Of a stretch of 64,000 bases of DNA, positions 3,295 to 31,876 are shown in pieces. The position numbers and the translations under genes were made by a program. Each line of letters starts with the position of its first letter. Position 1 is the stretch's first letter. The DNA comes from an uncultured Bacteroidota bacterium (GTDB taxonomy: Bacteria > Bacteroidota > Bacteroidia > Bacteroidales > WCHB1-69). The notes below the pieces were generated by a model. It saw only the letters and a program-made list of their open reading frames with translations, was not told the DNA's origin and searched no databases. The stretch lies in NCBI GenBank assembly GCA_902802755.1, contig CADCNH010000005.1, positions 30,634 to 94,633 on the forward strand. The letters are read 5' to 3'.

Positions 3295-5601
3295 TTATCG
3301 TATGAGGTTGATAGAACCGGTTTTGATCAATTCCTGTTTCAGATTATTATAACGGATATAATTGATGTAATAAGTATAAACACCTGAAGGACATTCTTTT
3401 CCGTTTAAGGTACCATCCCATCCGATTTCGGGATTATCGGAATAGAATATTAATCCGCCATTTCTGTCATAAATCATGATATAATATTTAGCCACACAGG
3501 CCACAACAGGTAAGAACACGTCGTTAAGTCCATCTTTGTTGGGTGTGAAAGTGTTGGGCACAAAGAGCACATGGTTATCCACCACAGGGACAGGAGCCAT
3601 ATATACATCCTGACAATTGGCATCATCGGTCACAGTAAGGATGACATTGTAATTTTCGCTGTTTTCGGAGTTGTATACATGAGTGGGATTCTCCTCATTA
3701 CTGTTGGTTCCGTCGCCAAAACTCCAGGAATAATGAACGTTCAAGCCTTCTGATTGATTGGTAAATAAGACTTCCTGACCAACTTCGGCTTCCGCTGGAT
3801 CAAAGATGAATTGTGCGGTAGGTTGTTGTCCGGCATTAATATAATTGCTGAGCGTGACAGTTGCGTCACAAGGTTCCGCCTCGTATGCATGATAAGTTAT
3901 AGAATAGCGCCCGGGTTCTGTAAAAAGAAAACTTGTATTGTCGCCATAAATAGTGGTGTCGGGTGTGTTAGCGGAGGAAATTGTCCATTCGTGAGTGCTG
4001 GCGGGAGTAGCCGTGGATTTGAATGTAACCTCCTCGGGCACACATATTTCGTTGGGACTGATATGATAATGTCCTGCCAGTTCAGGAGTGCTGGTAATGA
4101 GAGCGGTATGGTAGCATGTGTCCGTCATACAACCCCAACGGTCACTGACAATAACTTGGAAGGTGGTGTTCTGAGTAATATTGCAATTGCTTTCTCTGGC
4201 ATTAGGAGTAGCTAATCCAGTGGAAGGTGTCCACTGGTATCTTAAAGCTCCGTCGGTGCCTCCTTCCATTTGTATGGCTACATGCTCGCATCGGTCACAA
4301 TAAAAAATGGTATCACTGGTGATTGTGAATTTTTTATTGTCAGTTAAAATATATTTGATAGTATCGTATTGTGCTCTTTCGTCCCTATGACCATCCAGAT
4401 ATCTGAAATTGGGACACAAGATGCTTTTGAATACAAGTTGGGCTCTTTTTGACTGATTTGGGGCAAACTGTGCACTTTCTTTGATATCCATTTTCAATCG
4501 AATAAGGGTGTCGCCTTCTGGAAAATAAATAGTGTCTCCATGATGTAAGGTGTCAATCAGATTATTTGAGCGAAGACGGATTACGTAAAAATCCTCTTCA
4601 TTGGCAGTACCTCCATCGCAATAAAAGACAATGTTCATAGATGATTCCAATGGCTCTCCATAATGAATGTCAATGTCAGCACCTTTGCAATTTTTAATCA
4701 ACGTGTCAAATCCCATTGTAATACTGTCGGTAACGCTTATTTCTTTGGGCAACTTGAAACTGCCTTTCTCCAAGAACACTCCTGAATCGTATGCTCCATC
4801 AGAAACATTGGCAATGGAAATTTTCATTTTATATTCTGAACAGGCACAAAGTGGGGCGTCGGCAACCAAATTGGTTGTGAAACCATCATATTCGATAGCC
4901 CCTCCTGAGTTGCTTCGGTAAAATTGGGAATAAGTTAATACACAAGGGGTGGCAGATCCAGCAGATGTTCCATTGTTTAAAGTGTTGATAGAAACAGGAA
5001 GACCTCCACTACCGGGTATAATCGCCATGTTTTTAGTGACATTGCCTGGACTTCCGAAGGGATCTGGTCCATAGAGAAAGAAACCGAATACGTCATTGAA
5101 GGAGGAACATACAAACTCAGGATATTCTTCAGAAGCAAAAATATAGTTGAAAGATACAACGTTGGTATATTCATTTCTTCCACTGTAAAAGTTGAACTCC
5201 AATACAGACGCATTGTTGAGAGGCTGTCCTGAAGCCACAAGTGGCTGTAAATCAGGATCCACAGTGGCGTGATTAACACCTGTGGTGCTACTTTCACTAG
5301 GAGAGGAATTAGGTCCTTCGGCAACACTGATATTACCAGTGGTAAGCAAAACTCCCGAGTTAAATGGGAATTGGGGATTAGTATTGGCAAAGGTGCCCAC
5401 TTGTGAGCCGTTGATGGTACTGGAACTCCAATTGAACTTGCAGTTATACAGTTTTACATCTTCTCCCGCAAAATACCTGTTGAGGAAGGTATCGGGCAGC
5501 AAACCATTAGCAGGTGTGGTCGTAATGGATTGGCTATACCCCGTTATGATGCACAGGCAGGCGATAAAACTGATAAGCAATCTTTTATATAAATTTCTCA
5601 T
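3295..5601 (-). CDS. secreted adhesin-like protein: choice-of-anchor-L-like N-domain, PKD-like repeats, T9SS type-B C-terminal sorting domain
   Basis: Signal peptide. The ASEEYPEFV...FNDVFGFFL segment is typical of choice-of-anchor L. The C-terminus FVPNTFTPNKDGLNDVFLP...GVYTYYI is the gliding-associated/type-B CTD signature. Confidence 0.75.
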   Translation of the reverse strand: MRNLYKRLLISFIACLCIITGYSQSITTTPANGLLPDTFLNRYFAGEDVKLYNCKFNWSSSTINGSQVGTFANTNPQFPFNSGVLLTTGNISVAEGPNSSPSESSTTGVNHATVDPDLQPLVASGQPLNNASVLEFNFYSGRNEYTNVVSFNYIFASEEYPEFVCSSFNDVFGFFLYGPDPFGSPGNVTKNMAIIPGSGGLPVSINTLNNGTSAGSATPCVLTYSQFYRSNSGGAIEYDGFTTNLVADAPLCACSEYKMKISIANVSDGAYDSGVFLEKGSFKLPKEISVTDSITMGFDTLIKNCKGADIDIHYGEPLESSMNIVFYCDGGTANEEDFYVIRLRSNNLIDTLHHGDTIYFPEGDTLIRLKMDIKESAQFAPNQSKRAQLVFKSILCPNFRYLDGHRDERAQYDTIKYILTDNKKFTITSDTIFYCDRCEHVAIQMEGGTDGALRYQWTPSTGLATPNARESNCNITQNTTFQVIVSDRWGCMTDTCYHTALITSTPELAGHYHISPNEICVPEEVTFKSTATPASTHEWTISSANTPDTTIYGDNTSFLFTEPGRYSITYHAYEAEPCDATVTLSNYINAGQQPTAQFIFDPAEAEVGQEVLFTNQSEGLNVHYSWSFGDGTNSNEENPTHVYNSENSENYNVILTVTDDANCQDVYMAPVPVVDNHVLFVPNTFTPNKDGLNDVFLPVVACVAKYYIMIYDRNGGLIFYSDNPEIGWDGTLNGKECPSGVYTYYINYIRYNNLKQELIKTGSINLIR

Positions 5602-5620: not shown

Positions 5621-6571
5621 TTATTTCGAAAACATACTGTCGTTCATGACAATTCTGACAAGTACTCCAAAATTATAAGAGAAATCCTTATAACCTTCCA
5701 AACCAAACTTGCCTGCGTTAAAGTAAAAACACGGGTCCAGCGAAACATACTTGTTGAAGGCCAGTTTCAATCCGGCAGCAGCGGAAAAACCAAAGCCTGG
5801 TCCTCCATATTTGACAATGGATCCGTCGGATTGTATGCCAGGCACATAGTTCTGTAGATTGTTGATGAAACTGTAACTTTTCAGTTTGTTCTTGTTGGCG
5901 TCATAAAATACCGCATCCATGCTCTTTACACGCACAAAGTTGAATTGTACTCCAGCTTCAAGAAAGGGCTTGACAATGGATTTGGTGCTAAAATGATAAC
6001 AAACAGAAAGGTCTATCAGAGAACGGTCTTCCTTGCCTAAAATATACTGGTTGTCCAACATGCCAGTGTGATAATTTCCTGGTACTGCCTCGTAGAGTAT
6101 TCGGAACTGCCCGTTGGCTTTGAGCCGCGAAAAGGAATATACCAATTGCAAACTCCAATTTTTTGTGAATTTGTATCGTATGCCCAACTGAATCATTACA
6201 GCTACCCGATATTTCATATTACCTAAGGGTCCGCCATAATGAATGGAATCGCTGATGAAGGGGTAATGCTCCTTGATCATAGTATAGATGTCACGATAAC
6301 GGTACGTGTTTTCAAACAAGTAGTCGAGCCCGTTTTCATTGTTGTAGTTCCCATTGTAGTATTGTGCATTATACTTGGAACCAAAATAGCATCCTCCGGC
6401 GAAAATAATGTCAAAACCCTTGTCCTTGATATTGTCATCATCGTTTTTTTCTTGGGTATTCTGGGAGGAATGGGATTTGCTGGTAGAGGAATAGCGTGCC
6501 CCATTTCCGCTTTGTGCAAAAGTGGCTGTGCAGAATATCAACATCAGAAAAACGATAACAATATTTTTCAT
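5621..6571 (-). CDS. exported protein, probable outer-membrane beta-barrel (unknown function)
   Basis: Signal peptide (FCTATFAQ), alternating aromatic/Gly-rich strands, Asn/Tyr-rich composition. No recognisable family motif. Confidence 0.5.
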   Translation of the reverse strand: MKNIVIVFLMLIFCTATFAQSGNGARYSSTSKSHSSQNTQEKNDDDNIKDKGFDIIFAGGCYFGSKYNAQYYNGNYNNENGLDYLFENTYRYRDIYTMIKEHYPFISDSIHYGGPLGNMKYRVAVMIQLGIRYKFTKNWSLQLVYSFSRLKANGQFRILYEAVPGNYHTGMLDNQYILGKEDRSLIDLSVCYHFSTKSIVKPFLEAGVQFNFVRVKSMDAVFYDANKNKLKSYSFINNLQNYVPGIQSDGSIVKYGGPGFGFSAAAGLKLAFNKYVSLDPCFYFNAGKFGLEGYKDFSYNFGVLVRIVMNDSMFSK

Positions 6572-12955: not shown

Positions 12956-13028
12956 GTTTCAGTAGCTCAGCAGGTAGAGCACATCCCTTTTAAGGATGGG
13001 GTCCTGGGTTCGAATCCCAGCTGGAACA
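12956..13028 (+). tRNA. tRNA-Lys (anticodon TTT)
   Basis: Folded by hand: acceptor GTTTCAG/CTGGAAC, anticodon stem CATCC/GGATG with loop CTTTTAA, T-arm CTGGG-TTCGAAT-CCCAG. 73 nt, no encoded CCA. Confidence 0.9.
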
Positions 13029-13032
13029 CGGA

Positions 13033-13062: not shown

Positions 13063-13155
13063 GCCTATGCTGGAAACATGGCCATAATTCCCCAATTTTC
13101 CAATTCCCCAATTAACTAATTTGCTAATTTTTTTTGTTTTTTCGGATAAACTCCG

Positions 13156-13779: not shown

Positions 13780-16700
13780 ATGATGAAAAAATTACTCTTT
13801 ACACTTGGAGTGATCATCCTTTTTTCCAGCTTTGCTTATTCCCAATCGGGAACGATTAAGGGAGTAATCACGGATCAGACAGGAGAGCCGTTGGCGTACA
13901 CCCACGTCTATCTTAAGGTGGACGACAAGGTTGTCAACTATAACATGTCTAACGAAAAAGGAGAGTATCAGTTGTTTGGTATCCAGCCAGGCACATACGA
14001 CATTGAGGCAAATGCTGAAATGACGTGTAAGAAAACCATGAAAAAGACAGGTCTGGTGGTAAAAACTGGACAGGTTCAGTTCGTGGATTTCAAAATTAAC
14101 TGCGCCACAGACTTGGATGTTGTGGAAGTTGTATGGGAACCACCTGTGTTCGATGCCGATAACACCTCCTCCACCACACGTTTGAGTGGTGACGCTGTTC
14201 GTAAAACCCCTGGTCGTTCAATTACAGCAGCATTGTCCAACTTGGAAGGTGTATCCAGTGTGGATGGTAGTATGACCTCTGTGCGTGGTAACCGTTCCGA
14301 TGGTCAGCAGATGATTGTTGATGGTGTGAGAATGAGAGGTAACGCCAGTGTGGCTATGAGCACTGTGGAAGAAGCCCAGCTGATCCAGGGTGGTATCCCC
14401 GCTGAATTGGGTGACGGTACGAGCTTTACCGTGATTACCACGAAACCCGCTTCAAAGGATTTCCATGGATCAGTTGAGTTGCGTGGTTCTTTGGAAGGTT
14501 ATAATAATTTCTTGGCTGCTGCCTCTTTGACAGGTCCTATCTTGAAGGGTAAGAAAAGAGATGACCCCGCCCGTATCGGTTTCTTAATCAGCGGTGAGGT
14601 TGAATATGTCAAGGACGGTTTTCCCGCAGGTAAGGGTAGTTGGAAAAAACCCGGTACTTGGCGTGCTACCCCTGAGACTATCCTTGGCATCACAGAGGCT
14701 CCTATCCGTTACCCCCAGACAGATGCTAATGGTAATTCTGTTTTCGGTGTGACTAAATTGGAAGCTGAATACCTCGGCCCCGACGCTTTTGTGAAACAAA
14801 GAGTTCGTGACCATGCCGGTTATTGGAACTATCTGGCACAGGGTAAAATCGAATTTCTCTTCGGTAGAACCAATAACATCCGTCTCTCTTTCAACGGATC
14901 GTATGAATACAACAAAGGTAGAAGCTGGGGAACTTCAAGAGCTCTGTTTAATGCTCAGAATAACCCGGAATCAATCTCTAACACAACCCGTGTCAGCGCA
15001 CGTTTGAATCATAGAGTCTTCACGGATACAACAGGAACAGGTATCCTGAAAAACGTGATGTATGATATCAACTTCAACTTTACCCGTTATAACTCTACTT
15101 CACAAGATGCTTTCCACAAGGGTAATTTGTTCAACTATGGCTATATCGGACGATATAAATCTCACTTCGCAGAGAAATATGCTGATGTGGAAAGTTCTTA
15201 TTTAGATCCGCAAACAGGTATTACATATTATGGTAATATATATAGAATGAATAACCGTCTGGATACTTTGCTTACCTTTGAATCAGGCAATGTGAACCCA
15301 GGTCTTATTTTCTATACCCAAAACTTCTACGATCAGTTCTCACCAGCTTATATTGCTTCCAATTATGGTGCTGATCAACCCTATGATGACGACTTGTATG
15401 TAATGTTCGGCGCATTGTTGAATGGTCAAGGTCCCAATTCACCCTATAGTTTGTATGGTTCACCGAATATTCCTTATTCTAGTTACGGCAAGTCTCAACA
15501 GGATGTGTTCGGTCTTAAGGCAAGCATCTCTATGAACTTAACCAACCATGAGTTGAAACTTGGTTTCGAATTCGAAAAAATCATTTCACGTAGCTACTCT
15601 GTTTCTCCTTTCGGAATTTGGACTTTGATGAGAAACAAAGCCAATCAGCATAACGACGAAATCGACATTACTCATCCTGTGTATCTGGATGCTATGATGC
15701 CTTCTTGGTATAATAATGAACAAAGACAGAACTTCATTAATGAGCATAGTATCGATTTCAATGGTTATGATGGTGACATCTATATTTGGTTTGACCGTGC
15801 TCTCGGTGATGTGGCCGATGGTGGTTTTGCCCAGAATATCCGTAACCAACTGGGTATGAATTTGAGAGAATGGGTTGATGTGGATGACATTACACCTGCT
15901 CAATACAATGAAATGGGTGGTCTGGCCCTGTTCTCTACCGAAGAATTGGTCGTTGGTACAGGTCATGGTGGTATTGTTTCTTACATGGGTTTCGATGGTC
16001 TTGGAAAGAAATACAGAGGCAGTGCTTCCATCAGAGATTTCTTCACCAAGAAGGATGGTAAGAGAACTTATGAAATCGGTGCATACCAGCCTACTTATAT
16101 GGCATTCTATCTGCAAGATAAATTCTCTATCAACAGCTTGCTCTTTAGCGTGGGTGTCCGTGTTGACTATTTCGATGCTAACCAGGATGTGTTGAAGGAT
16201 CCTTACCTCTTCCGCGACGCATATACTGTGAAAGAACTGAGAGCATTGAACTTTGGCAGAGAAACTCTTCTGGAAGGTGCTAATGACAATTGGTATGTAT
16301 ATGTAAACCAAAGAAGTTATTACAACGCCAATCTGAGTCCTGAGAACTTCGACGTGTCTGTAATTGGTTATCGTGATGGTGATAATTGGTATGACAAATA
16401 TGGTGACTTGGTTACCAACCCGGAAACTGATTTGTCATTGAATACCGCTGGTCCTATCTTGAAGAATAAATTGGATGAAACAGATGTAACCAAGGTTGAA
16501 GCTGACGCTTTCGGCAACTATGCTCCCAACTGGTCAGTAATGCCTCGTATCTCCTTCTCCTTCCCTGTATCAGACAACTCTTTGTTCTATGCTCATTATA
16601 ATATCGTGACTTCACGTCCTACTAACTTGAGCATTAATCCTATCACTTATATGTTTATTGAAGATTATGCTACCAGCATTATCAATAACCCTGCATTGAA

Positions 16701-17643
16701 ACCCCAGAGAAGTGTTGATTATGAAATCGGTTTCCGTCAGAAAATCGGTGAGAAGTCAGCTATCAGTATTGCGGCTTATTATTCAGAGAAACGTGACATG
16801 ATCCAGTCATACCGTTTCACGGGTGCATATCCAAGTACTTATTATTCATATAAGAATATGGACTTCGGTACTGTTCAGGGCTTTACTTTGAGCTATGAAT
16901 TGAGACGACTCAAAAATATTTCTTTCCGTGCCAACTATACCTTGCAGTTTGCAAAAGGTACAGGTTCATCTGCTAGTTCAAACGCTGCCATCATAGCTTC
17001 CGGTCAGCCGAACTTGAGAACTTTGGTGAATTTGTCATTTGACCAGCGTCATAGATTGGGTGCTACTATTGACTATCGTTTCGACCACGGTACAGAATAT
17101 AATGGACCTGTTACCAGAAAGCAGAAAAAAGGTACCAATACCGTTAAGGAAATCAGATGGTTCCAGGATGCTGGTATTACCCTTCTGTTCTCTGCCGCTT
17201 CAGGTATGCCCTACAGCCGTTCAAGTACTCCTAACTCAACTTTCGTATCTGGTACAACCTCACGTTTGCAAGGTACCATCCATGGTTCACATAGACCTTG
17301 GATTTTCCAGTGCGACTTGCGTATCGACAAGACTTTCATATTTAATTTGTATGGCAAGAACGCAAAGGATAAAGATGGTAATCCTAAGGGTGTGAAACCT
17401 GGTTCTCTGACTGTTTACCTGGATATCCAAAACTTGTTCAATTTCAAGAATATTCTCTATGTATATGACTACACCGGAAATCCGGATGATGATGGTTTCT
17501 TGTCAGCAACAGAATACAGAGCAATTGTTCAGTCTCAAACTGACCGTAGCGCATTCATCAACTATTATAATATGATTATGCAGGATCCTTACAACTATAG
17601 CCAACCAACACGTGTGAGCTTGGGTGTTCAGTTCGGATTCTAA
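13780..17643 (+). CDS. oversized TonB-dependent receptor-like outer-membrane barrel (CarboxypepD_reg-like N-domain + plug + barrel), 1,287 aa
   Basis: Signal peptide. GTIKGVITDQTGEPLAYTHVYLK is a carboxypeptidase-regulatory-like domain. The plug segment is LSGDAVRKTPGRSI...VRGNRSDGQQMIVDGVRM. The terminal ...SLGVQFGF ends in the aromatic residue typical of OMPs. Confidence 0.8.
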   Translation: MMKKLLFTLGVIILFSSFAYSQSGTIKGVITDQTGEPLAYTHVYLKVDDKVVNYNMSNEKGEYQLFGIQPGTYDIEANAEMTCKKTMKKTGLVVKTGQVQFVDFKINCATDLDVVEVVWEPPVFDADNTSSTTRLSGDAVRKTPGRSITAALSNLEGVSSVDGSMTSVRGNRSDGQQMIVDGVRMRGNASVAMSTVEEAQLIQGGIPAELGDGTSFTVITTKPASKDFHGSVELRGSLEGYNNFLAAASLTGPILKGKKRDDPARIGFLISGEVEYVKDGFPAGKGSWKKPGTWRATPETILGITEAPIRYPQTDANGNSVFGVTKLEAEYLGPDAFVKQRVRDHAGYWNYLAQGKIEFLFGRTNNIRLSFNGSYEYNKGRSWGTSRALFNAQNNPESISNTTRVSARLNHRVFTDTTGTGILKNVMYDINFNFTRYNSTSQDAFHKGNLFNYGYIGRYKSHFAEKYADVESSYLDPQTGITYYGNIYRMNNRLDTLLTFESGNVNPGLIFYTQNFYDQFSPAYIASNYGADQPYDDDLYVMFGALLNGQGPNSPYSLYGSPNIPYSSYGKSQQDVFGLKASISMNLTNHELKLGFEFEKIISRSYSVSPFGIWTLMRNKANQHNDEIDITHPVYLDAMMPSWYNNEQRQNFINEHSIDFNGYDGDIYIWFDRALGDVADGGFAQNIRNQLGMNLREWVDVDDITPAQYNEMGGLALFSTEELVVGTGHGGIVSYMGFDGLGKKYRGSASIRDFFTKKDGKRTYEIGAYQPTYMAFYLQDKFSINSLLFSVGVRVDYFDANQDVLKDPYLFRDAYTVKELRALNFGRETLLEGANDNWYVYVNQRSYYNANLSPENFDVSVIGYRDGDNWYDKYGDLVTNPETDLSLNTAGPILKNKLDETDVTKVEADAFGNYAPNWSVMPRISFSFPVSDNSLFYAHYNIVTSRPTNLSINPITYMFIEDYATSIINNPALKPQRSVDYEIGFRQKIGEKSAISIAAYYSEKRDMIQSYRFTGAYPSTYYSYKNMDFGTVQGFTLSYELRRLKNISFRANYTLQFAKGTGSSASSNAAIIASGQPNLRTLVNLSFDQRHRLGATIDYRFDHGTEYNGPVTRKQKKGTNTVKEIRWFQDAGITLLFSAASGMPYSRSSTPNSTFVSGTTSRLQGTIHGSHRPWIFQCDLRIDKTFIFNLYGKNAKDKDGNPKGVKPGSLTVYLDIQNLFNFKNILYVYDYTGNPDDDGFLSATEYRAIVQSQTDRSAFINYYNMIMQDPYNYSQPTRVSLGVQFGF

Positions 17644-17684
17644 TCTTTAATCCAACAGTTTGATAATAATAAAAATAAATAATC

Positions 17685-20600
17685 ATGAAGAATACAATTA
17701 AAAGTTTATTTTTAGTAGCTCTCGTGCTTCTGTCTGCGATTGGAACCGTCCAGGCAGAAAGATGGATTGGAGATCCTAAAAAGAAGGCCCAAACCCAGGC
17801 TAAGGCCGGTTCCGCAAAATGTTTGTCGGCTACAAACTCCAATGAGTTGACTATTAACAATGTACGTGCTTACATCGAAACCAATGGTACGATGTGGAAT
17901 AAGGAGCTTGCAGAATACGAGGTTCCAAAGGGCTCTGGTAAAAGCTCTATGTTCGCTGCAGCTTTGTGGATTGGTGGTCTGGATGATAACAACCAGTTGA
18001 AATTGGCCGCTGTCCGTTTCCGTCAGGTTGGTGATGACTATTGGACTGGTCCTCTTTCTGTGGATGGTCTGGCCCAGATTGCCCAGGAGGATTGTGCTGC
18101 ATGGGACAAAATGTTCAAAATGACCCGCGCAGAAGTTGACGAACATATTAATGCTTACAATACGCATAATCATGTTGTGCCTAATCCTTCCCTGGCTATC
18201 AGAAACTGGCCTGCACATGGTGATTATGATAACAAAAAACAGTCATTCTATCTGGCCCCGTTCAAGGATGTGAATGGTAACTATGAATATGATCCTGAAA
18301 ATGGTGACTATCCGTATTATGATATTGACAATGAACTTTGCCCTTGGACTGAAGCTAACAAGTCAAGAGCTGCTCATGGTTTGTTGCCGATTCCTTACGA
18401 ACAGGAACGTGTTTCAGAGTTCCCGACATACGCTAACTCCATCGGTATTGATGGTATGGTTTATGCCGACCACGTGTTGAAAGGTGATGAAACCTTGTTC
18501 TGGATTTTCAATGATAAGGGTAATGCACATACCGAAACAGGTGGTGCCTCCATCGGTTTGGAAATCCGTGCACAGGCATTTGCCTTCCAAACAAATGATG
18601 ACTTGAACAACATGACTTTCTATTCATACGAAATCATCAACCGTTCTACGACTAACTTGAACCAGACTTTCTTCTCACAGTGGGTTGACCCCGATTTGGG
18701 TTATTCACATGATGACTATGTGGGTTGCGATGTTGCCCGTGGTTTGGGTTATTGCTATAATGGTCTGCCTATCGATGGTGCAGGTTTGGCTCAACACTAT
18801 GGTGCCAATCCTCCCGCTGTCGGTGTTGACTTCTTCCAAGGTCCTTATATCGATCCCGACTATATGGTGGATGATTCAACAGGTGAAACGGTTGGCCGTG
18901 ATAATCCTCATTTTGACATAAATCAGGCAGGTGTTATTGGTACAGTTGCCAATAAATTATATTGTGACCAGTTCCTGAAAAGCAACTATCCAAGTGACCA
19001 GTTCGCTATCAATGGTGTGAACTTCGGTGATAGTATTGCCAATAACGAACGTTTTGGTATGAGACGTTTCGTATTCCACAACAATGATGATAGTAACCGT
19101 GGTGACCCAAGAAAAGCTACTGAATACTATCAGATGTTGAAAGGTATCTGGAAAGATGGTCAGCGTATGACCTACGGTGCATTGGCTCACCCCGACTATG
19201 GTGGAGTTGTAGGTCCGGAATGCGACTTCATGTTCCCTGGTACAAGCGACCCATGTAACTGGGGTATTGAAGACCCTGTACAACGTGATGTATTCAACTA
19301 CCAAGACTATGGTGGAAGCCGTGGTTGGGTAGAGGAAACTGTGGCCAATGACCAGCCTTCAGACAGACGTTTCATGCAGTCTGCTGGTCCTTTCACCCTG
19401 CGCCGTGGTGCCGTTAACTACATTACCGTTGGTATTCCATGGGCCCGTTCTTATTCAGGTGGTCCTTGGCAATCAGTTGAATTGCTGAAAATTGCCGATG
19501 ATAAGTGCCAGGCTTTGTTCGAAAACTGCTTCAAAGTATTGGATGGCCCTGATGCTCCAGATGTGACTATTAAGGAATACGAAAATGAGCTGATTATTTA
19601 TTTGACCAATGATAGAGATGACTCTAATAACAAGGATGAACAATACGCTGAAGTAGATCCTCAGATTAATGAAGGTTATAATACCGACTCAACTTATACT
19701 CAGGTGTTTACTAATCCTGATGGTACTGTTGACTCTGTAACAGCTGTAACTTCTGTTTATAAGAGATATCCGGAAGGAAGCAACAAGTATGTGTTCGAAG
19801 GTTATCAGATTTATCAGGTATCAGGAAAAGATGTTAGCGTTTCTGATATCGGTAACTTGGACAGAGTACGTTTAATCGCTCAATGCGACGTTGTAAACTT
19901 CCGTCCAGATGGTACTGCAATCGGTCAGTTGATCAACTGGGAGTTCGACCAATCATTAAATACAAATGTAGCTGTCGAAAAAGTTAATGGTTCCAATAGC
20001 GGTATTCAACGTACCTTCAGAGTCACTGAAGATAAGTTTGCTACAGGAAACAGCACCCTGGTGAATCATAAGACCTATTACTTCATGGTCATTGCATACG
20101 CATATAACGAATATGCTCCGTTCTCAATTGATGAACAGGTTACCGATGGCTTGAAAGGTCAAAAGACCCCGTATTTGGCTGGTAGAAGAAATATTAAGAT
20201 TGTTTCTGGTATTCCTCATAGTCCTAAAGCTACAGGAGTTGATGTTAACCAGTTGTGTGCATACGGTACTCAGCCGCAGATTACGAGACTGGAAGGTCAA
20301 GGAAATGGTGGTTTCGTGCTTGAAATGGATGATGAGTCAAGAGCAAATATTTTGAAAGGTGGAGTTAATGGAGATTTCTCAGCCGGAAAGGTTACATATA
20401 AGAGCAACTATGGTCCTCTTGATGTAAGGGTAATTGACCCGCTGCAAGTTAAGCCTTTGACTTACGAAGTAAGATTCATCAAGAACGGTGACGAAGTGAA
20501 TGATGAAACTAAATGGACATTGAAAGTAACAGGCGTTGACGGTGTAAACTTCTCATCAGAAGAAGATTTGTTTGCTTACCTGAAAGATACATTCAATATT

Positions 20601-22730
20601 ACAAAACCTGTTGATACTTCTAATTTTAGCATCAATGTCAATACTGAACAGCTGTTTATGGAATTAGGTCTGTCAGTGGCTATCAACAATAAGCCATTTG
20701 AAATCCATGACGAAAGCCAGTTGCGTTGGTTGCAACAGGCTAATAATGGAACACTTTCTTCGGGTGCATTATTGATGGGTGGACAGGTGAGCTTCCTTCA
20801 GTCATCCTTGAACTTCGAAGATAAATCTACTCCATGGTTGTTCGGTCAGCAAGATATCGAAGGTGAATATCCGAGCAACTGGATCCGTTCAGGTAACCAG
20901 GGACTAGGTAACTGGGAGCAGTGGTCTTCACAAGATGGTGCTGAAGATGAATACATGAAATGGAGAGTTGAAGATGCTTGTGAGATTTATCCGCCCAATG
21001 GTGATGAGTCCCCATACAACACTCAATGTATGAGAGCTTTCAGAGATCCTATTTCACAATATGAATCTATTGTATATGGTACGTGGGCTCCTTACGTGAT
21101 TGCATCTCCTTATTCTGGAGGTCCTAAAGCTGGTTTTGTAGTTCCTGATACAGTTTTCTATGCTTCAGGTGCTGGTTTCCCCACCCCGCGTTACTATGAT
21201 TTCGCAGAGTTGTTGAAACAGAAAGAATATACCAATAACGATTTGTGGCCTCATTATGACGATGGTCGTTCTGCTACACAGCACGCTTCCGTCAACCATG
21301 CACAGTGGTCTATGGGTCACAACATGACAATGACTAACTTGTATTCAGTGGATGTTGTCTATACTTCCGACAAGAGCTTGTGGACACGTTGTCTCGTACT
21401 TGAAGCTGGTTCAACAGCAACTGGTTTTGTACCTACTGAATATGGTGATAATGTACGCCATGAACCTAAACACAATCCTTCTGTTGACAAGAATGGTAAC
21501 CCCGACAATTCAGGTACAACTGGTTTCGGCTGGTTCCCGGGTTATGCTATCAATGTTGAAACAGGTGAAAGACTGAATGTCATGTTTGCTGAAAATTCAT
21601 TGGATACTGTGAATAATGGTAATGATATGATTTTCAATCCTACCACTATGTATGCATATTTTACCGATCCTGAAACAGGCGAGATTCATGAACTCACAGA
21701 AAACGAGTATATGACCATGTGGAATAACTGGGCTATGTTAGACCATGGTGGAGTGGATGATGTACACGCACTTTGCGTAATGCCTGAACCCGCATTCGGT
21801 GGAAGACATTTTCTGTATATCTGCAGCAGCTCAGGTTCAACAGCTCCTATCCAATATGAGGACAGATTTGCAAAACGTAATTACAATGATGATGACCAAT
21901 TGCGTCAAGGTGCTGGTAATCTGAACTCCTCTGGTGCTCATACCTCTTATCAGCACGGTGGTCAGATACGTAATTATGTAAATGGCGATGCTCTCGTTGT
22001 GGGTCCCGATGGTCAGGGATACGACAACTATGAATGCGGTCCGTATGATGAAGGTGAATGGTTAGCTGCCAAGTTCTCATCCTTCACAAGCGATACCTCA
22101 TTGAACCGTCCACAGAGAAGAGCTGTGAAAATGCAGTTGTTCAACAATGTAATGTGGACTACCATTTCTATGCCTATGCCTGGATACGAAGATCAATGGC
22201 TCAAGTCTGGTAATGATGCAACTGTAAAGATCCGTGTATCCCGTCCATACATGAGATACAAATCACGTTGGTTCAGCGATGACCAGAGAATGGCTTACGA
22301 AGCAACTCATGGACCTATCGAAAATGAAGGTTTCCCGTTGTATAGCTTCTCTACTGTTGATTTGGCTCCTGTTATCAATGATTCGAAAGAATATCACGAT
22401 GAAATGTTGCAGGATATCAATATTGTGCCGAATCCATACTATGGCTTCTCCAAATATGAATCTACTGCACTTGAAACATACGTGAAGATTGTGAACTTAC
22501 CTGCTCCTTGTGAAGTGTCTATCTATTCAGCCAATGGTGTACTGATCCGTACGTTGAGTAAGAAAGCTTCAGATGAGGCAACAACCTACATTGATTGGGA
22601 TTTGAAGAACCACGCTGGAATTCCTGTGGCTGGTGGTATTTATATCATCCATGTCAAGGCTCCTAATGTTGGTGAAAGAACCCTGAAATTCTTCTGCGCT
22701 ATGCGTCCAACCGACTTAAATGCTTTCTAA
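17685..22730 (+). CDS. 1,681-aa secreted protein of unknown function with C-terminal T9SS/FlgD-Ig-like sorting-domain-like module
   Basis: SPI signal (TVQA/ER). No catalytic motif recognised. The last ~100 aa (IVPNPYY...VSIYSANGVLIRTL...WDLKNHAGIPVAGGIYIIHVKA) follow the type-A CTD / FlgD-Ig pattern. Confidence 0.7.
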   Translation: MKNTIKSLFLVALVLLSAIGTVQAERWIGDPKKKAQTQAKAGSAKCLSATNSNELTINNVRAYIETNGTMWNKELAEYEVPKGSGKSSMFAAALWIGGLDDNNQLKLAAVRFRQVGDDYWTGPLSVDGLAQIAQEDCAAWDKMFKMTRAEVDEHINAYNTHNHVVPNPSLAIRNWPAHGDYDNKKQSFYLAPFKDVNGNYEYDPENGDYPYYDIDNELCPWTEANKSRAAHGLLPIPYEQERVSEFPTYANSIGIDGMVYADHVLKGDETLFWIFNDKGNAHTETGGASIGLEIRAQAFAFQTNDDLNNMTFYSYEIINRSTTNLNQTFFSQWVDPDLGYSHDDYVGCDVARGLGYCYNGLPIDGAGLAQHYGANPPAVGVDFFQGPYIDPDYMVDDSTGETVGRDNPHFDINQAGVIGTVANKLYCDQFLKSNYPSDQFAINGVNFGDSIANNERFGMRRFVFHNNDDSNRGDPRKATEYYQMLKGIWKDGQRMTYGALAHPDYGGVVGPECDFMFPGTSDPCNWGIEDPVQRDVFNYQDYGGSRGWVEETVANDQPSDRRFMQSAGPFTLRRGAVNYITVGIPWARSYSGGPWQSVELLKIADDKCQALFENCFKVLDGPDAPDVTIKEYENELIIYLTNDRDDSNNKDEQYAEVDPQINEGYNTDSTYTQVFTNPDGTVDSVTAVTSVYKRYPEGSNKYVFEGYQIYQVSGKDVSVSDIGNLDRVRLIAQCDVVNFRPDGTAIGQLINWEFDQSLNTNVAVEKVNGSNSGIQRTFRVTEDKFATGNSTLVNHKTYYFMVIAYAYNEYAPFSIDEQVTDGLKGQKTPYLAGRRNIKIVSGIPHSPKATGVDVNQLCAYGTQPQITRLEGQGNGGFVLEMDDESRANILKGGVNGDFSAGKVTYKSNYGPLDVRVIDPLQVKPLTYEVRFIKNGDEVNDETKWTLKVTGVDGVNFSSEEDLFAYLKDTFNITKPVDTSNFSINVNTEQLFMELGLSVAINNKPFEIHDESQLRWLQQANNGTLSSGALLMGGQVSFLQSSLNFEDKSTPWLFGQQDIEGEYPSNWIRSGNQGLGNWEQWSSQDGAEDEYMKWRVEDACEIYPPNGDESPYNTQCMRAFRDPISQYESIVYGTWAPYVIASPYSGGPKAGFVVPDTVFYASGAGFPTPRYYDFAELLKQKEYTNNDLWPHYDDGRSATQHASVNHAQWSMGHNMTMTNLYSVDVVYTSDKSLWTRCLVLEAGSTATGFVPTEYGDNVRHEPKHNPSVDKNGNPDNSGTTGFGWFPGYAINVETGERLNVMFAENSLDTVNNGNDMIFNPTTMYAYFTDPETGEIHELTENEYMTMWNNWAMLDHGGVDDVHALCVMPEPAFGGRHFLYICSSSGSTAPIQYEDRFAKRNYNDDDQLRQGAGNLNSSGAHTSYQHGGQIRNYVNGDALVVGPDGQGYDNYECGPYDEGEWLAAKFSSFTSDTSLNRPQRRAVKMQLFNNVMWTTISMPMPGYEDQWLKSGNDATVKIRVSRPYMRYKSRWFSDDQRMAYEATHGPIENEGFPLYSFSTVDLAPVINDSKEYHDEMLQDINIVPNPYYGFSKYESTALETYVKIVNLPAPCEVSIYSANGVLIRTLSKKASDEATTYIDWDLKNHAGIPVAGGIYIIHVKAPNVGERTLKFFCAMRPTDLNAF

Positions 22731-22757
22731 AACGTATTTTGAGAATATTAAAAAATA

Positions 22758-23969
22758 ATGGCTATGAATAAAATATATAAAACATTTATCATTTGCGCAG
22801 TTGTGGGTCTTCTTTCGTATGCGGGACAATCTTTCGCAGGAAACAGAGACCGTTCAGGACAGGCTGGTGCAGCCAGCCTCCTCATCGACCCATGGGCAAG
22901 AACAAATGGTTGGGGTAATGCAGGTGTTGCGGAAATCCGTGGTATGGAGTCTGTATATTCCAATGTGGCTGGTCTGGCCTTCGTGAAAAAGACAGAACTG
23001 GGTTTCTCAAGAACCCAGTATCTGACTGGCTCAAATTGTGGTATCAACATTAATTCGGTCGCTATCGGTCAGTCCTTGGCTAAAAGAGATAAAGCTACTG
23101 GTCGTGTTATCAAAGATTTTGGTGTCATCGGCATCTCTGTATTCATGATGAATTTTGGTGATATTCCTATTACCACCGTTGATCAACCTGAAGGCAATAT
23201 GGGTTTTTTCTCTCCCAGATATTTCAATATCGGTATCCATTATGCTAAGTCTTTTAACCAGTACATCCATGGTGGTGTGAGCGTTAAGATTGTCAACGAG
23301 AGTGTTTCTGACTTGAATGCAACAGGTGTTGCTATCGATGCAGGTGTACAGTACCTGGCTGGTCCATACGAAAACTTCAAAATCGGTGTGGCCTTGAAAA
23401 ACATCGGTCTGCCTATTAGCTACAAGGGCGACGGTATCATGCAGAGAGCGGTCATTACTGGCTCAGAACATGAAATGACCCTTGAAACTCGTAGTGCTGA
23501 GTATGAAATGCCGGCATTGCTGACTCTCGGTGTATCTTACGACTTCCTTTTCTTTGGTGGTATCTATAAAGATATGGATAAAGATGAAAGAAAAGATGAA
23601 GGTCTTACCCGTGATGATGCAGACCATCGTTTGACGCTGGCAGGTTCTTTCACAGCAAACTCTTATTCACGCGATATCTTTACCCTCGGTCTTGAATATG
23701 GTTTCAAACAATATTTTATGATTCGTGTAGGATATGGTTTGGAAAGTTTCGGAGTTGAAAGAAATGATCCTGAAAAACCAAACAAAATCACTGCCATCAC
23801 TGGCGTTAACCCGGAATCTATTTACTCAGGTCTTTCCCTGGGTTGCTCTGTGGGTATTCCATTGGTGAAGAAAGATAAAGGCAATCAGAAACTTGTTCTG
23901 GATTATGCTTACAGATTCACCAATAAATGGAAAGGAAATCATTATGTAAGCTTGAAACTGGCTTTATAA
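22758..23969 (+). CDS. PorV/PorQ-family (FadL-like) outer-membrane barrel
   Basis: The N-terminal segment GQAGAASLLIDPWARTNGWGNAGVAEIRGMESVYSNVAGLAF matches the family pattern (G.sgA.fL.i...AR..gmG.A.va......s...N.AGLA). 403 aa. Confidence 0.65.
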   Translation: MAMNKIYKTFIICAVVGLLSYAGQSFAGNRDRSGQAGAASLLIDPWARTNGWGNAGVAEIRGMESVYSNVAGLAFVKKTELGFSRTQYLTGSNCGININSVAIGQSLAKRDKATGRVIKDFGVIGISVFMMNFGDIPITTVDQPEGNMGFFSPRYFNIGIHYAKSFNQYIHGGVSVKIVNESVSDLNATGVAIDAGVQYLAGPYENFKIGVALKNIGLPISYKGDGIMQRAVITGSEHEMTLETRSAEYEMPALLTLGVSYDFLFFGGIYKDMDKDERKDEGLTRDDADHRLTLAGSFTANSYSRDIFTLGLEYGFKQYFMIRVGYGLESFGVERNDPEKPNKITAITGVNPESIYSGLSLGCSVGIPLVKKDKGNQKLVLDYAYRFTNKWKGNHYVSLKLAL

Positions 23970-23997
23970 TCTTTTCTGAACATATTATCTAAAAACA

Positions 23998-24028
23998 AAA
24001 GGGGCTTTTCGCTAAGCCTCTTTTATTT
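23998..24028 (+). terminator. rho-independent terminator after the three-gene cluster
   Basis: AAAGGGGCTT-ttcg-... AAGCCTCTTT stem followed by a T-run. Confidence 0.65.
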
Positions 24029-24054: not shown

Positions 24055-24528
24055 ATGGATACGATTAAATATTATTCTAAAGAAAGTTTGGAACAACTGA
24101 AAGAGGAACTCAAACATCTGGAAAGTGTGGAAAGACCTAAAATCTCCGCTGCCATCGCGGAAGCTCGTGATAAAGGTGACCTGTCGGAAAATGCCGAATA
24201 CGATGCGGCGAAGGAAGCACAGGGTATGCTGGAGCTGAAAATCGCTAAACTGAAAAATCTGGTGGCCAATGCCCGTATTTTGGATGAATCAAAAATCGAT
24301 GTGTCAAAAATTTTGATTTATTCAAAAGTTCAGGTAAAGAACTTGCAAAATAACGCGGTGATGTCATACACCCTGGTGCCAGAATCCGAGTCTGACCTGA
24401 AGGTAGGAAAAATTTCGGTTACCTCTCCTATCGCAAAAGCATTGATAGGTAAACAAAAAGGTGAAGTGGTGGAGGTAAAGGTGCCTGTTGGTATCATCAA
24501 ACTGGAAATTATGGACGTTACAAGATAA
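24055..24528 (+). CDS. greA: transcription elongation factor GreA
   Basis: N-terminal coiled coil with the DLSENAEYDAAKE acidic tip; 157 aa. Confidence 0.9.
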   Translation: MDTIKYYSKESLEQLKEELKHLESVERPKISAAIAEARDKGDLSENAEYDAAKEAQGMLELKIAKLKNLVANARILDESKIDVSKILIYSKVQVKNLQNNAVMSYTLVPESESDLKVGKISVTSPIAKALIGKQKGEVVEVKVPVGIIKLEIMDVTR

Positions 24529-24534
24529 TTGAAT

Positions 24535-24927
24535 ATGGAAACTATTTTCACAAGAATCATTAAGGGTGAAATTCCCTCATACAAAGTGGCGGAAAACGAC
24601 AAGTTTTACTCGTTTTTGGATATTAGCCCGTTGGCAAAAGGCCATACCTTGGTGGTCCCTAAGATTCAAAATGATTATATTTTTGATTTAGATGATACCA
24701 CCCTTGCTGAGATGGTGGTGTTTGCCAAGAAAGTCGCTCTGGCTATTGAAAAAGCTATCCCTTGCAAAAGAATTGGTGTGGCGGTAATAGGTCTGGATGT
24801 TCCACATACCCATATCCATCTTGTGCCAATTAATAATGTTGGTGACCTTGATTTCAAAAAGGAAAGAGTGAAATTGACAGAAGAGGAATTCAAGAGTACC
24901 GCCGCCGCAATCGCCGCAGAATTATAA
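24535..24927 (+). CDS. HIT (histidine triad) family protein
   Basis: HTHIHLVP histidine-triad motif. I prefer the ATG at 24535 over the listed TTG at 24529. Confidence 0.85.
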   Translation: METIFTRIIKGEIPSYKVAENDKFYSFLDISPLAKGHTLVVPKIQNDYIFDLDDTTLAEMVVFAKKVALAIEKAIPCKRIGVAVIGLDVPHTHIHLVPINNVGDLDFKKERVKLTEEEFKSTAAAIAAEL

Positions 24928-25056: not shown

Positions 25057-25902
25057 ATGGCAACAATTGACGAATTAAAAGCTACCGCCGCCCAAGTGCG
25101 TCGTGACATTATCAGAATGGTTCATGGAGCAAAATCAGGTCATCCGGGAGGTTCCCTCGGCTGTGCTGATTTCTTGACCGCTCTGTATTTCGAACTGATG
25201 GAACTCGAACCGGATTCTTTCAGAACAGATGGTGTGGGACAGGATATGTTTTTCTTGTCTAATGGACATATCACCCCGGTTTTGTATAGTGTTATGGCCC
25301 GTCGTGGTTTCTTCCCGGTGAAAGAGTTGGCCACATTCCGTCAGCTGGGAACACGTTTGCAAGGACATCCTACTCCCGTGGAACAAATTCCCGGAGTGCG
25401 TATTGCATCAGGTTCACTCGGACAAGGACTCTCTGTGGCTATCGGTGCGGCGCTTGCCAAGAAAGCCAATGGCGACAAACATGTGGTGTATGCTTTGACG
25501 GGTGATGGCGAGTTGCAAGAAGGCCAAATCTGGGAAGCTGTTATGTTTGCTGGTGCCAAACACGTGGATAACTTGATTGCCACTGTTGACTTTAATGGCA
25601 AACAAATAGATGGTCCTACAGATGAAGTTTGTTCCCTGAAGGAAATTACGGCCAAATTTGAGGCATTTAACTGGCAAGTGGTGCAAATGGATGGCAATAA
25701 GATGGATGATGTCGTAGAGACGATGAAAAAGGCCAAAAACGCCCTGTTCCAGCAAAAGCCTGTCGTGGTCGTGATGAAAACGGAAATGGGTATGGGAGTG
25801 GATTTCATGATGGGAACCCACAAGTGGCATGGTACACCTCCTAATGATGAACAAGCCGCCGCTGCTCTATCACAATTGCCAGAAACCCTGGGAGATTTCT
25901 AA
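25057..25902 (+). CDS. transketolase, N-terminal (TPP/PP-domain) subunit of a split enzyme
   Basis: SGHPGGSLG, GDGELQEG and the overall 281-aa N-subunit architecture. No C-terminal subunit gene is adjacent. Confidence 0.85.
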   Translation: MATIDELKATAAQVRRDIIRMVHGAKSGHPGGSLGCADFLTALYFELMELEPDSFRTDGVGQDMFFLSNGHITPVLYSVMARRGFFPVKELATFRQLGTRLQGHPTPVEQIPGVRIASGSLGQGLSVAIGAALAKKANGDKHVVYALTGDGELQEGQIWEAVMFAGAKHVDNLIATVDFNGKQIDGPTDEVCSLKEITAKFEAFNWQVVQMDGNKMDDVVETMKKAKNALFQQKPVVVVMKTEMGMGVDFMMGTHKWHGTPPNDEQAAAALSQLPETLGDF

Positions 25903-30436: not shown

Positions 30437-31876
30437 ATGATTCAGGTGAAAACATCCATACACGACCGCTTTTCTGTGGAGTTCAAGATTAACTTCTCAG
30501 GCAAGGAACAACAGCATCGTCTGTTCAAGATGAATTCATGGTTGTTTGTGCCCAGTAGTCTTGATATCAACGCTTCCACTTATTCCAAGGAGCAGTTTTA
30601 CCAGGATGTGAAGTCGAATGTACGTCTGAAAACGCCTCAGTTTACCTTGCAACAACTTGCTGATGCGGAAGTATTGACGGTGCGGAATCTCAGTGCCGCA
30701 GTGCAAAAGTATGTGGAAACTCCGACCTCCGCTTGTCTTCAAGATTTGGAATTTCACATCAAGATGTATGTGGCCATTTATAAGAGTGCGTTGCGTGATG
30801 AAACCAGGGCTTTGCAGACTTTGAAGGAGTCAGCTTTCAATTCTGAAGCTTGGAAGTCCCATTTGACATCTATGCGTAGAGTGGTGAGGCACTATAGGGA
30901 AGTCATGCGGAACAATTCTGAAAATTCATCGGATATCGCATCGATTTTCCAATATGGCGATGAGTATTTGAGTCACCTTACCGAACTGCATGCCGTGCGC
31001 TTGATGCGTTCTTCCACTGCCATTTCCGCTACGGGAATTGAGGATGTCCGCAAGGAGATAAAGTCTTTGATTGTGGAAGAGCATCAGTATAAAATCGATC
31101 AGGGATATGCTCATTTTTCCTTAAGCAGTGTGGCGGAAAATCGTGATATGTTTCTGCATCAGAACTTGTTGAAGAAATATATCGAAAGTGCATTATATCT
31201 GAAATCGGATTCCCAGCCGGATGGCACAGCGGCAAAGGAAATCACTTTGAGTTTTGCTGCGGGACTGGCCATGTTGGTGTCCATGTTGATAGCGTTGCCT
31301 TTCCAAAAATACCTTGGACAGTATCCGATACTTATTTTTGTGATTTTGGTGGTGGCATATATGTTCAAGGACCGTATCAAGGAATATGCGCGCAACCATT
31401 TTGCCCACCGCTTGAAATCACGTTTTTTTGACTTGAAAAACAAAGTTTATTTTCGAGGGAAAGAAGTGGTGCATATCAAGGAAGGAATGGATTTTATCGA
31501 TGATTCGAAGACTCCTGACGAGGTTCGACAGTCGCGTAAACGTTCCGATTTGGAACACCGTATTCCGTTGGAACAGATTATTTTATACCGCAAGCAGGTG
31601 GAAATTGACAACGATTTGTTAGGTCAGCAGTATGAATACCGTTACGATGGAATCAATGATATTACTCGTATTCATTTGCAGCATTTCACAGCCAAAATGG
31701 ATGATCCTGAGACAAATGTGGCTATGCTGGATGGGAATGAGGTGCAGACCATGAGCGTTCCCCGTGTGTACAACTTGCATATCGTCCTGCAATGTGTGGC
31801 GGGAGATATGATGGAATATCACTGTTTCAGGCTGATGATGTGCCGGGACGGCATTCTGGAATGTGTGGAAATCTAA
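30437..31876 (+). CDS. hypothetical membrane protein (central TM hairpin), unknown function
   Basis: Starts 6 nt after the dxs stop. Two adjacent hydrophobic helices lie at about aa 270-310. No family recognised. Confidence 0.5.
   Translation: MIQVKTSIHDRFSVEFKINFSGKEQQHRLFKMNSWLFVPSSLDINASTYSKEQFYQDVKSNVRLKTPQFTLQQLADAEVLTVRNLSAAVQKYVETPTSACLQDLEFHIKMYVAIYKSALRDETRALQTLKESAFNSEAWKSHLTSMRRVVRHYREVMRNNSENSSDIASIFQYGDEYLSHLTELHAVRLMRSSTAISATGIEDVRKEIKSLIVEEHQYKIDQGYAHFSLSSVAENRDMFLHQNLLKKYIESALYLKSDSQPDGTAAKEITLSFAAGLAMLVSMLIALPFQKYLGQYPILIFVILVVAYMFKDRIKEYARNHFAHRLKSRFFDLKNKVYFRGKEVVHIKEGMDFIDDSKTPDEVRQSRKRSDLEHRIPLEQIILYRKQVEIDNDLLGQQYEYRYDGINDITRIHLQHFTAKMDDPETNVAMLDGNEVQTMSVPRVYNLHIVLQCVAGDMMEYHCFRLMMCRDGILECVEI

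Follow-up and report, generated by a model that had tools for sequence, protein, structure and literature searches.

The window analyzed here is a 64,000-nucleotide (nt) stretch of contig CADCNH010000005.1 (positions 30,634 to 94,633, forward strand) from an uncultured Bacteroidota bacterium of the Bacteroidales lineage WCHB1-69. Our subject is a trio of consecutive genes within this window, which encode a TonB-dependent outer-membrane barrel (gene 1), a giant secreted protein (gene 2, hereafter the giant) and a barrel of the PorV/PorQ family (gene 3) (Table 1). A preliminary description of this DNA had set out three open reading frames (ORFs) on one strand, separated by only 41 nt (genes 1/2) and 27 nt (genes 2/3) and closed by a terminator at 23998; the coordinates proved exact, all three genes lie on the + strand, and the terminator corresponds to a hairpin followed by a T-run. 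Each of the three products has a signal peptide and a predicted location in the outer membrane or at the cell surface. Tentatively, and at somewhat less than even odds, we read the three genes as one operon encoding an outer-membrane surface complex with TonB-powered import.

Table 1. Features of the trio locus, in window coordinates (aa, amino acids; CTD, C-terminal sorting domain; T9SS, type IX secretion system)
Feature	Position	Strand	Evidence or location
Gene 1, TonB-dependent outer-membrane barrel, 1287 aa	13780-17643	+	ORF, Pfam matches, family profile
Gene 2, giant secreted protein, 1681 aa	17685-22730	+	Translation, alignments
Very conserved N-terminal core of the giant, aa ~44-640	17814-19604	+	Alignments A1, A4
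T9SS type A CTD of the giant, aa ~1575-1681	22407-22730	+	TIGR04183, PorZ/PorU C-termini, Foldseek
Gene 3, PorV/PorQ-family (FadL-like) outer-membrane barrel, 403 aa	22758-23969	+	NF033709
Terminator-like hairpin and T-rich tail, 3' end of the three-gene unit	23997-24024	+	Consensus scan
Possible accessory gene, small protein of ~139 aa	13253-13672	+	Translation, BLAST-linked ORF family
greA	24055-24528	+	3' of the terminator-like hairpin
HIT-family gene	24529-24927	+	3' of greA
tRNA-Lys, with its own terminator-like hairpin	12956-13029		5' of the trio

Pfam searches recovered all three regions of the receptor-like architecture that had been proposed for the 1,287-aa product of gene 1. Behind a signal peptide (aa 1-22), the protein holds an N-terminal extension (NTE) of the CarboxypepD_reg type (aa 25-105), a plug (Plug, PF07715; aa 127-214, 25.5 bits against a cut-off of 23.9) and a barrel match (TonB_dep_Rec_b-barrel, PF00593; 53.7 bits, aa 912-1122). 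NTE and Plug recur in 26/26 orthologues, PF00593 in 15 of the 26. When compared with the Protein Data Bank (PDB), the family profile matched the plugs of Cir, FepA and YncD as well as the NTE of a SusC homologue. A TonB-box-like strand (LDVVEVVW, aa 112-119, nt 14113-14136) lies between NTE and plug, a hydrophobic strand of this kind with the consensus L-x-x-V-E-I-V-x-Y is present in all 26 orthologues, and the C-terminal residue is a Phe that is invariant among them. Judged by these features, gene 1 encodes a TonB-dependent barrel with NTE and plug, its dependence on TonB being predicted from the TonB-box-like strand. Neither the window protein nor any of the 26 orthologues matched the SusC/RagA models (TIGR04056/TIGR04057), ruling out a SusC/RagA assignment, and the gene downstream of gene 1 showed no match to SusD, in agreement with the earlier statement that the barrel lacks a SusD-like partner.

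The giant starts with a signal peptidase I signal peptide (aa 1-24, ...VQA/E), has no lipobox and is not a lipoprotein. It had been described as recognizable only at a C-terminal sorting domain, and the window protein on its own indeed gave nothing at its C-terminus beyond weak matches to FlgD_ig, the PorZ C-terminus and TIGR04183. Among 27 members of the giant's family, TIGR04183 matched 26 proteins (best E=5.9e-7), PF18962 (Por_Secre_tail) 7, the PorZ C-terminus model 15 and the PorU C-terminus model 4. All inspected PorZ/PorU matches fall within the last ~100 residues of the proteins; in the window protein and six inspected relatives they align only the last ~80-110 model positions, and in two relatives inspected for PorU (NF033707) they are limited to the CTD (model positions ~980-1078 of 1095). 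In the same line, the family profile matched the PorZ CTD in the PDB (5m11, E=0.03), and a Foldseek search with the modelled C-terminus of the giant returned PorZ (5m11, E=5e-5) and, weakly, the translocon-bound CTD of NucA (8glk_D, E=0.03). The last CTD strand is followed by a conserved 10-residue tail (C/G-x-M/L-R-P-x-D-L-N-x), and CTD and tail are strongly conserved across the family alignments.

Going by these comparisons, the CTD of the giant is of type A and most like those of PorZ and PorU. The giant as a whole was ruled out as a divergent PorU or PorZ, the model matches being confined to the CTD in the window protein and the six relatives, and neither Peptidase_C25 nor any other Pfam family was found in its body by searches with the window protein and with the profile. 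Since three proteins with type B CTDs are encoded elsewhere in the window, the organism very probably has a T9SS; the window itself contains no core T9SS genes.

Together, genes 1 and 2 bear on a different reading, in which the barrel would serve export rather than import, acting like Oar of Myxococcus xanthus by helping to secrete or assemble the giant or another protein across the outer membrane, with gene 3 as the receiver. Oar shares the CarboxypepD_reg NTE, plug, barrel and TonB box with gene 1 and is needed for secretion of PopC (PMC6434023), and the window barrel is, with its 1287 aa, unusually long. However, Oar is linked to protein export without a T9SS or PorV partner, and the NTE/plug/barrel architecture called 'Oar-type' is generic in Bacteroidetes, where it is simply the commonest among TonB-dependent transporters (PMC6434023). 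Moreover, a second export route would be unnecessary, because the giant bears a genuine T9SS CTD and further T9SS cargo is encoded in the same organism. We regard an exporting barrel as very unlikely.

The third gene, whose signal peptide ends ...SFA/GN, had been noted for a PorV/PorQ signature, and the family model NF033709 bore this out with 114.5 bits against a cut-off of 90. All equivalog models stayed below their cut-offs (PorV NF033710, 52.3 of 250 bits; PorQ NF033711, 54.8 of 220; PorV2 NF052325, 36.5 of 325), ruling out gene 3 as a canonical PorV, PorQ or PorV2 on curated thresholds. An apparent mention of 'PorV2' in the literature proved to be PorV with a superscript reference number. 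The same pattern is shared by all 25 orthologues, each of which matched NF033709 (E<=0.001; best E=2.7e-46) and none of which reached an equivalog cut-off (best E with the PorV model, 1.1e-23). The family profile found Flavobacterium johnsoniae PorV (6h3i_F, E=5.6e-16), and matches to the PorP family were weak and restricted to 8/25 orthologues. Nor is there a PorU upstream of gene 3, the PorU-model matches of the giant's relatives covering the CTD only; this disposes of the possibility, raised in the preliminary description, that the 403-aa protein is the canonical PorV with PorU upstream. Because the family model is passed and the PorV, PorQ and PorV2 models are failed, gene 3 is, on sequence grounds, a true PorV homologue in a clade of its own.

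At the SprA translocon, each T9SS substrate is met by its cognate carrier barrel, which recognizes it and with which it is drawn out; type B cargo remains anchored on its carrier (PMC10994853). PorU and PorZ, in turn, retain their CTDs and dock on PorV and PorQ, and a review suggests that cognate PorV-like barrels shield CTDs from cleavage (PMC10202324). The gene 3 clade appears to match this 'cognate carrier protein' model: owing to the private PorV-family barrel, the PorZ/PorU-like CTD and the conservation of CTD and tail, the gene 2/gene 3 pair fits the carrier pattern. Alternatively, the giant could be ordinary type A cargo whose CTD is cleaved by PorU, leaving the protein attached to anionic lipopolysaccharide or released, with gene 3 a mere specialized shuttle for a very large substrate and the barrel co-transcribed but independent. 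Type A cargo is normally cleaved (PMC10202324), the CTD fits the general type A model TIGR04183 (26/27) and Por_Secre_tail (7/27), and its likeness to PorZ/PorU CTDs is modest (24-34 bits). Generic cargo, however, would have no need of a private carrier gene 30 nt downstream in hundreds of species; the extra C-terminal tail and the high conservation of the CTD suggest a specific, lasting partner; and the three-gene order recurs, around a presumably unrelated middle protein, in the gene map of an alginate locus in Rhodothermus marinus. Ordinary cargo thus appears an unlikely account of the giant.

Upstream of the CTD, the N-terminal ~600 residues are the best conserved part of the giant, followed by a more variable middle and the C-terminal body. 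This N-terminal core holds dozens of invariant Asp, Gly, Pro, Trp and Cys residues (alignments A1 and A4), even at 38-45% overall identity. Except for the CTD, neither the single sequence nor the 27-member profile matched anything in Pfam, NCBIfam or PDB sequences, and an hhalign self-comparison detected no internal repeats or propeller. An AlphaFold2 (AF2) model of aa 840-1681 reached a mean predicted local distance difference test score (pLDDT) of 74.5 and a predicted template modelling score (pTM) of 0.76; its body gave no significant Foldseek match in PDB or BFVD (best non-CTD E ~6e-3). The N-terminal half (aa 25-900, 31-sequence alignment) was modelled at a pLDDT of 49.7, and a likeness of this model to GH161/GH94 phosphorylases (Foldseek E>=0.05) is not credible. 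No known enzyme or adhesin family was thus found for the giant in Pfam, NCBIfam, PDB sequences or Foldseek searches of PDB and BFVD, in line with the preliminary description, which had seen no catalytic or known binding motif outside the C-terminal module. Our literature search found no paper describing the trio or the giant's family.

In some relatives of the giant, the variable middle region contains inserted modules of BNR/YCF48-like or Big_9/cadherin-like type (P0252, P0232, P0219), which suggests a tolerant, surface-exposed segment. Such insertions are typical of surface proteins and would also suit a structural or adhesive envelope module, in which the giant is a constitutive surface-layer protein, adhesin or envelope organizer and the two barrels are mainly anchors, with no TonB import. 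The S-layer proteins of Tannerella forsythia are T9SS cargo as well, and each locus has a single trio, surrounded by housekeeping genes (tRNA-Lys, folE, greA, HIT, lptF/G) and no regulators. Against this, hundreds of residues of the giant do not vary even where identity is 38-50%, whereas S-layer proteins and adhesins evolve fast; also, all gene 1 orthologues possess the plug and TonB-box-like strand, which would be pointless for a passive anchor. We consider a purely structural role distinctly unlikely.

Next to the molecular features of the three proteins, the trio is marked by wide conservation. The order TonB barrel, giant, PorV-like barrel was found in 83/83 loci across Bacteroidales, wherever the contig was long enough, and down to a giant identity of 38%; the preliminary description had named synteny in related genomes as one test of its proposal, and the trio passed. 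A single search returned more than 5,400 homologues of the giant. At E<=1e-3, there were 6,717 cluster representatives at 50% identity, 1,811 of them at E<=1e-30, and 533 matches were confirmed among species-representative genomes; with homologues this numerous, the three ORFs are not chance. Carriers comprise Bacteroidales metagenome-assembled genomes (MAGs), Lentimicrobiaceae, Salinivirgaceae and Ca. Limimorpha, and the giant's family is common in Bacteroidales from rumen, gut and sediment. Where inspected, the source names of the giant's relatives were all MAGs or metagenome contigs, including long-read contigs of 4-5 Mb. The window itself is 99% identical to a contig from a rumen Bacteroidales MAG. 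In one locus, on a 4.09-Mb contig of a soil Bacteroidota MAG (L079:4293-7952), the TonB-barrel orthologue is broken over three reading frames, either as a pseudogene or through frameshift errors of long-read sequencing; genes 2 and 3 of that locus are intact.

Conserved order could also reflect no functional link at all, the three genes having merely stayed together by descent in a part of the genome that rearranges slowly. The functionally unrelated greA and HIT genes are equally syntenic 3' of the trio in every long-enough locus, even at 38% giant identity, so order alone is no proof of functional coupling. The case for coupling rests instead on tight spacing, the hairpin boundary, a shared destination and a variable upstream flank. 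Median gaps within the trio are 26 and 30 nt across related loci, whereas the PorV-like gene and greA are 87 nt apart (median of 71 loci), with the hairpin at this boundary. The 5' flank, which in the window consists of folE, tRNA-Lys and a small ORF, differs between clades, yet the trio is never broken. In addition, all three products are bound for the same compartment, and the pairing of T9SS cargo with a PorV-family barrel has a known mechanistic logic. Mere neighbourhood is accordingly the least probable of the explanations weighed here. The gene order greA/HIT after the trio is, in its own right, unusually stable without an obvious functional reason. Within the window, a sigma-70 promoter scan gave no matches above shuffled expectation, and an Rfam scan detected tRNAs only.

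We propose, with a probability of roughly 0.45, that gene 3 is a dedicated carrier and anchor of the giant, and the giant either a lid or a ligand-capturing module that serves TonB-dependent import. The giant would be exported by Sec, after which its own carrier, the gene 3 barrel, would recognize the type A CTD at the T9SS translocon, draw the giant out and retain it on the cell surface. Anchoring would be achieved by a lasting hold on the uncleaved CTD, as for PorV with PorU and PorQ with PorZ. The carrier-giant pair would adjoin the TonB-dependent barrel, and the giant may act as an extracellular capture or processing module or lid that passes a ligand on to TonB-energized import. It would thereby fill a SusD-, BtuG- or HmuY-like role with a T9SS-anchored protein instead of a lipoprotein. 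The self-contained surface complex for tethering or uptake envisaged in the preliminary description fits both the T9SS carrier paradigm and published gene maps, and it is to this extent that the proposal stood; the complex itself is inferred.

Several observations weigh against this reading. The contacts between the three proteins are inferred, as are the export, anchoring and uptake steps, the direction of transport and the ligand; retention of the CTD on the mature giant likewise cannot be read from its sequence. TIGR04183 scores 15.2 bits with the window giant alone, below the cut-off of 23, and the Pfam barrel match of gene 1 is limited to aa 912-1122. At 1,300-1,700 aa, the giant's family far exceeds known lids of TonB transporters, and conservation as high as this points more to an enzyme or a component of a machine than to a simple binding protein. 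Family searches found no regulator, carbohydrate-active enzyme (CAZyme) or other nutrient-pathway gene at the locus, which differs in this from a typical uptake locus. Finally, the synteny of greA and HIT makes conserved order by itself weak evidence for coupling. The uptake half of the model is uncertain because of the housekeeping context, the absent regulators and the size and conservation of the giant, and the carrier/anchor half is better supported. Even so, the most economical reading of gene 1 is an importer with a T9SS-delivered surface partner.

Among characterized systems, the PorU-PorV and PorZ-PorQ pairs of the Porphyromonas gingivalis attachment complex likewise combine a protein with a type A-like CTD and a 14-strand barrel of the PorV/PorQ family, where docking on the barrel is ascribed to a CTD that escapes cleavage (PMC10202324). 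Unlike these, the giant has neither the peptidase region of PorU nor the body of PorZ, the trio's barrel fails the PorV and PorQ equivalogs, and a TonB-dependent barrel is part of the operon. In P. gingivalis, porZ and porQ are not known to lie side by side. In SprB-SprF-type pairs, a carrier barrel of the PorP/SprF type is likewise encoded beside its type B cargo and then serves as its surface anchor (PMC10994853; PMC9143113); the giant differs by its type A (TIGR04183) rather than type B (TIGR04131) CTD, and its carrier belongs to the PorV/PorQ family.

SusC/SusD, BtuB/BtuG and HmuR/HmuY resemble the trio in pairing a plug-bearing TonB barrel with a surface protein, the NTE/plug/barrel architecture being common to both. 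In contrast to these systems, the trio has no SusC/RagA signature and no SusD, the partner is T9SS-exported instead of a lipoprotein and 5-10x larger, a third protein serves as the putative anchor, and the genes lie in a housekeeping rather than a regulated utilization locus. Because the defining features of each were looked for and not found, the locus is not a member of PorV, PorQ, PorV2, PorU, PorZ or SusC/SusD. Instead, it appears to resemble a fusion of a T9SS cargo-carrier pair with a TonB transporter that has a surface partner.

A structural precedent is offered by BamA-BamG-BamH of Bacteroides thetaiotaomicron, in which the loops of a FadL/PorV-like 14-strand barrel hold a large surface protein while the barrel itself lies against a bigger one (PMC12578637). 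There, unlike in the trio, the large barrel is BamA, and the available text of that source describes no T9SS CTD; the likeness is architectural only (PMC12578637).

Published gene maps, in turn, contain arrangements that recall the one in the window. Among the alginate lyases of the R. marinus locus, the map shows genes of the three types in the trio's order: first the TonB-dependent receptor, next the T9SS type A protein, last the PorV/PorQ-family protein (PMC9530828). The three genes are much shorter than those of the trio (2,805, 2,181 and 1,056 nt) and are labelled as hypothetical or transport genes on that map (PMC9530828). Moreover, the R. marinus locus is a polysaccharide utilization locus and the window locus is not, and the likeness is one at the level of the gene map. 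T9SS type A and 'porV/Q' genes are also listed in the figure legend on Hmu operons and gene clusters of Porphyromonas and other Bacteroidota (PMC12106395), and an iron-induced locus of Prevotella intermedia includes a PorV/PorQ protein (PMC10434189). These maps support the view that a TonB-dependent importer with a T9SS-delivered surface partner may be a recurring design.

A wider reading would make the trio the founding member of a widespread, unrecognized class of outer-membrane machines that joins T9SS and Ton in one surface device. Here, the private carrier would extract the giant and permanently couple it to the TonB barrel, the ~600-aa core would represent a new catalytic or binding fold, and interchangeable middle proteins, as in the Rhodothermus alginate locus, would constitute a SusD-independent alternative to Sus. 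We consider this extension possible but less likely than not. More modestly, the trio is widespread and mechanistically suggestive, and it agrees with what current T9SS models would predict instead of contradicting them.

If the proposed model is right, the trio would provide a third type of cognate pairing between carrier and cargo in the T9SS, next to PorU-PorV/PorZ-PorQ and type B cargo with PorP/SprF, and would indicate that SusD-less TonB-dependent transporters can gain a surface capture module via the T9SS rather than via lipoprotein export. Many uncultured Bacteroidales share the giant as a conserved and probably constitutive part of the envelope, and for its body Pfam and NCBIfam hold no model. 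The trio also provides a natural test case for what decides between cleavage and retention of a type A CTD.

Directly upstream of gene 1, a small ORF with a mechanical start at 13121 and a likely start at M45 (13253) encodes a protein with an N-terminal transmembrane helix, an acidic, low-complexity or disordered middle and a conserved C-terminal motif, IIYGEILKNPYN ('IIY(S/G)EILK-x-P-Y'); it belongs to no Pfam or NCBIfam family. BLAST-linked small ORFs lie on the same strand ~110 nt 5' of the barrel gene in 56/79 sequences (78 loci plus the window), and other clades have a different small ORF at this position. This distribution rules out a universal fourth component and, as the gene is not universal, leaves its membership in the trio's system uncertain.

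Several other ORFs of the window deserve mention. Two ORFs, at 30437-31876 (+, 479 aa) and 41781-43052 (-, 423 aa), have no match in Pfam or NCBIfam. A 1079-aa protein (47083-50322, -) has PD40/TolB-like beta-propeller repeats as its sole matches, and the R. marinus alginate locus likewise ends with a large PD40-domain protein. Downstream of the HIT gene, a 281-aa ORF (25057-25902, +) corresponds to the N-terminal, thiamine pyrophosphate (TPP)-binding part of transketolase only; it is followed by lptF/G, not by the C-terminal transketolase half, and the same arrangement is seen in one of the related loci (L003). The type B proteins of the window comprise two tandem paralogues of ~950 aa (53444-56284, - and 56461-59346, -), T9SS cargo with P_proprotein, PKD and type B (CHU_C) domains, and a 768-aa protein (3295-5601, -) with a choice-of-anchor L domain, PKD and a T9SS type B sorting domain. 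The latter adjoins a 316-aa OMP_b-brl_2 barrel without an NCBIfam match (5621-6571, -), and the two may form another cargo-plus-carrier pair.

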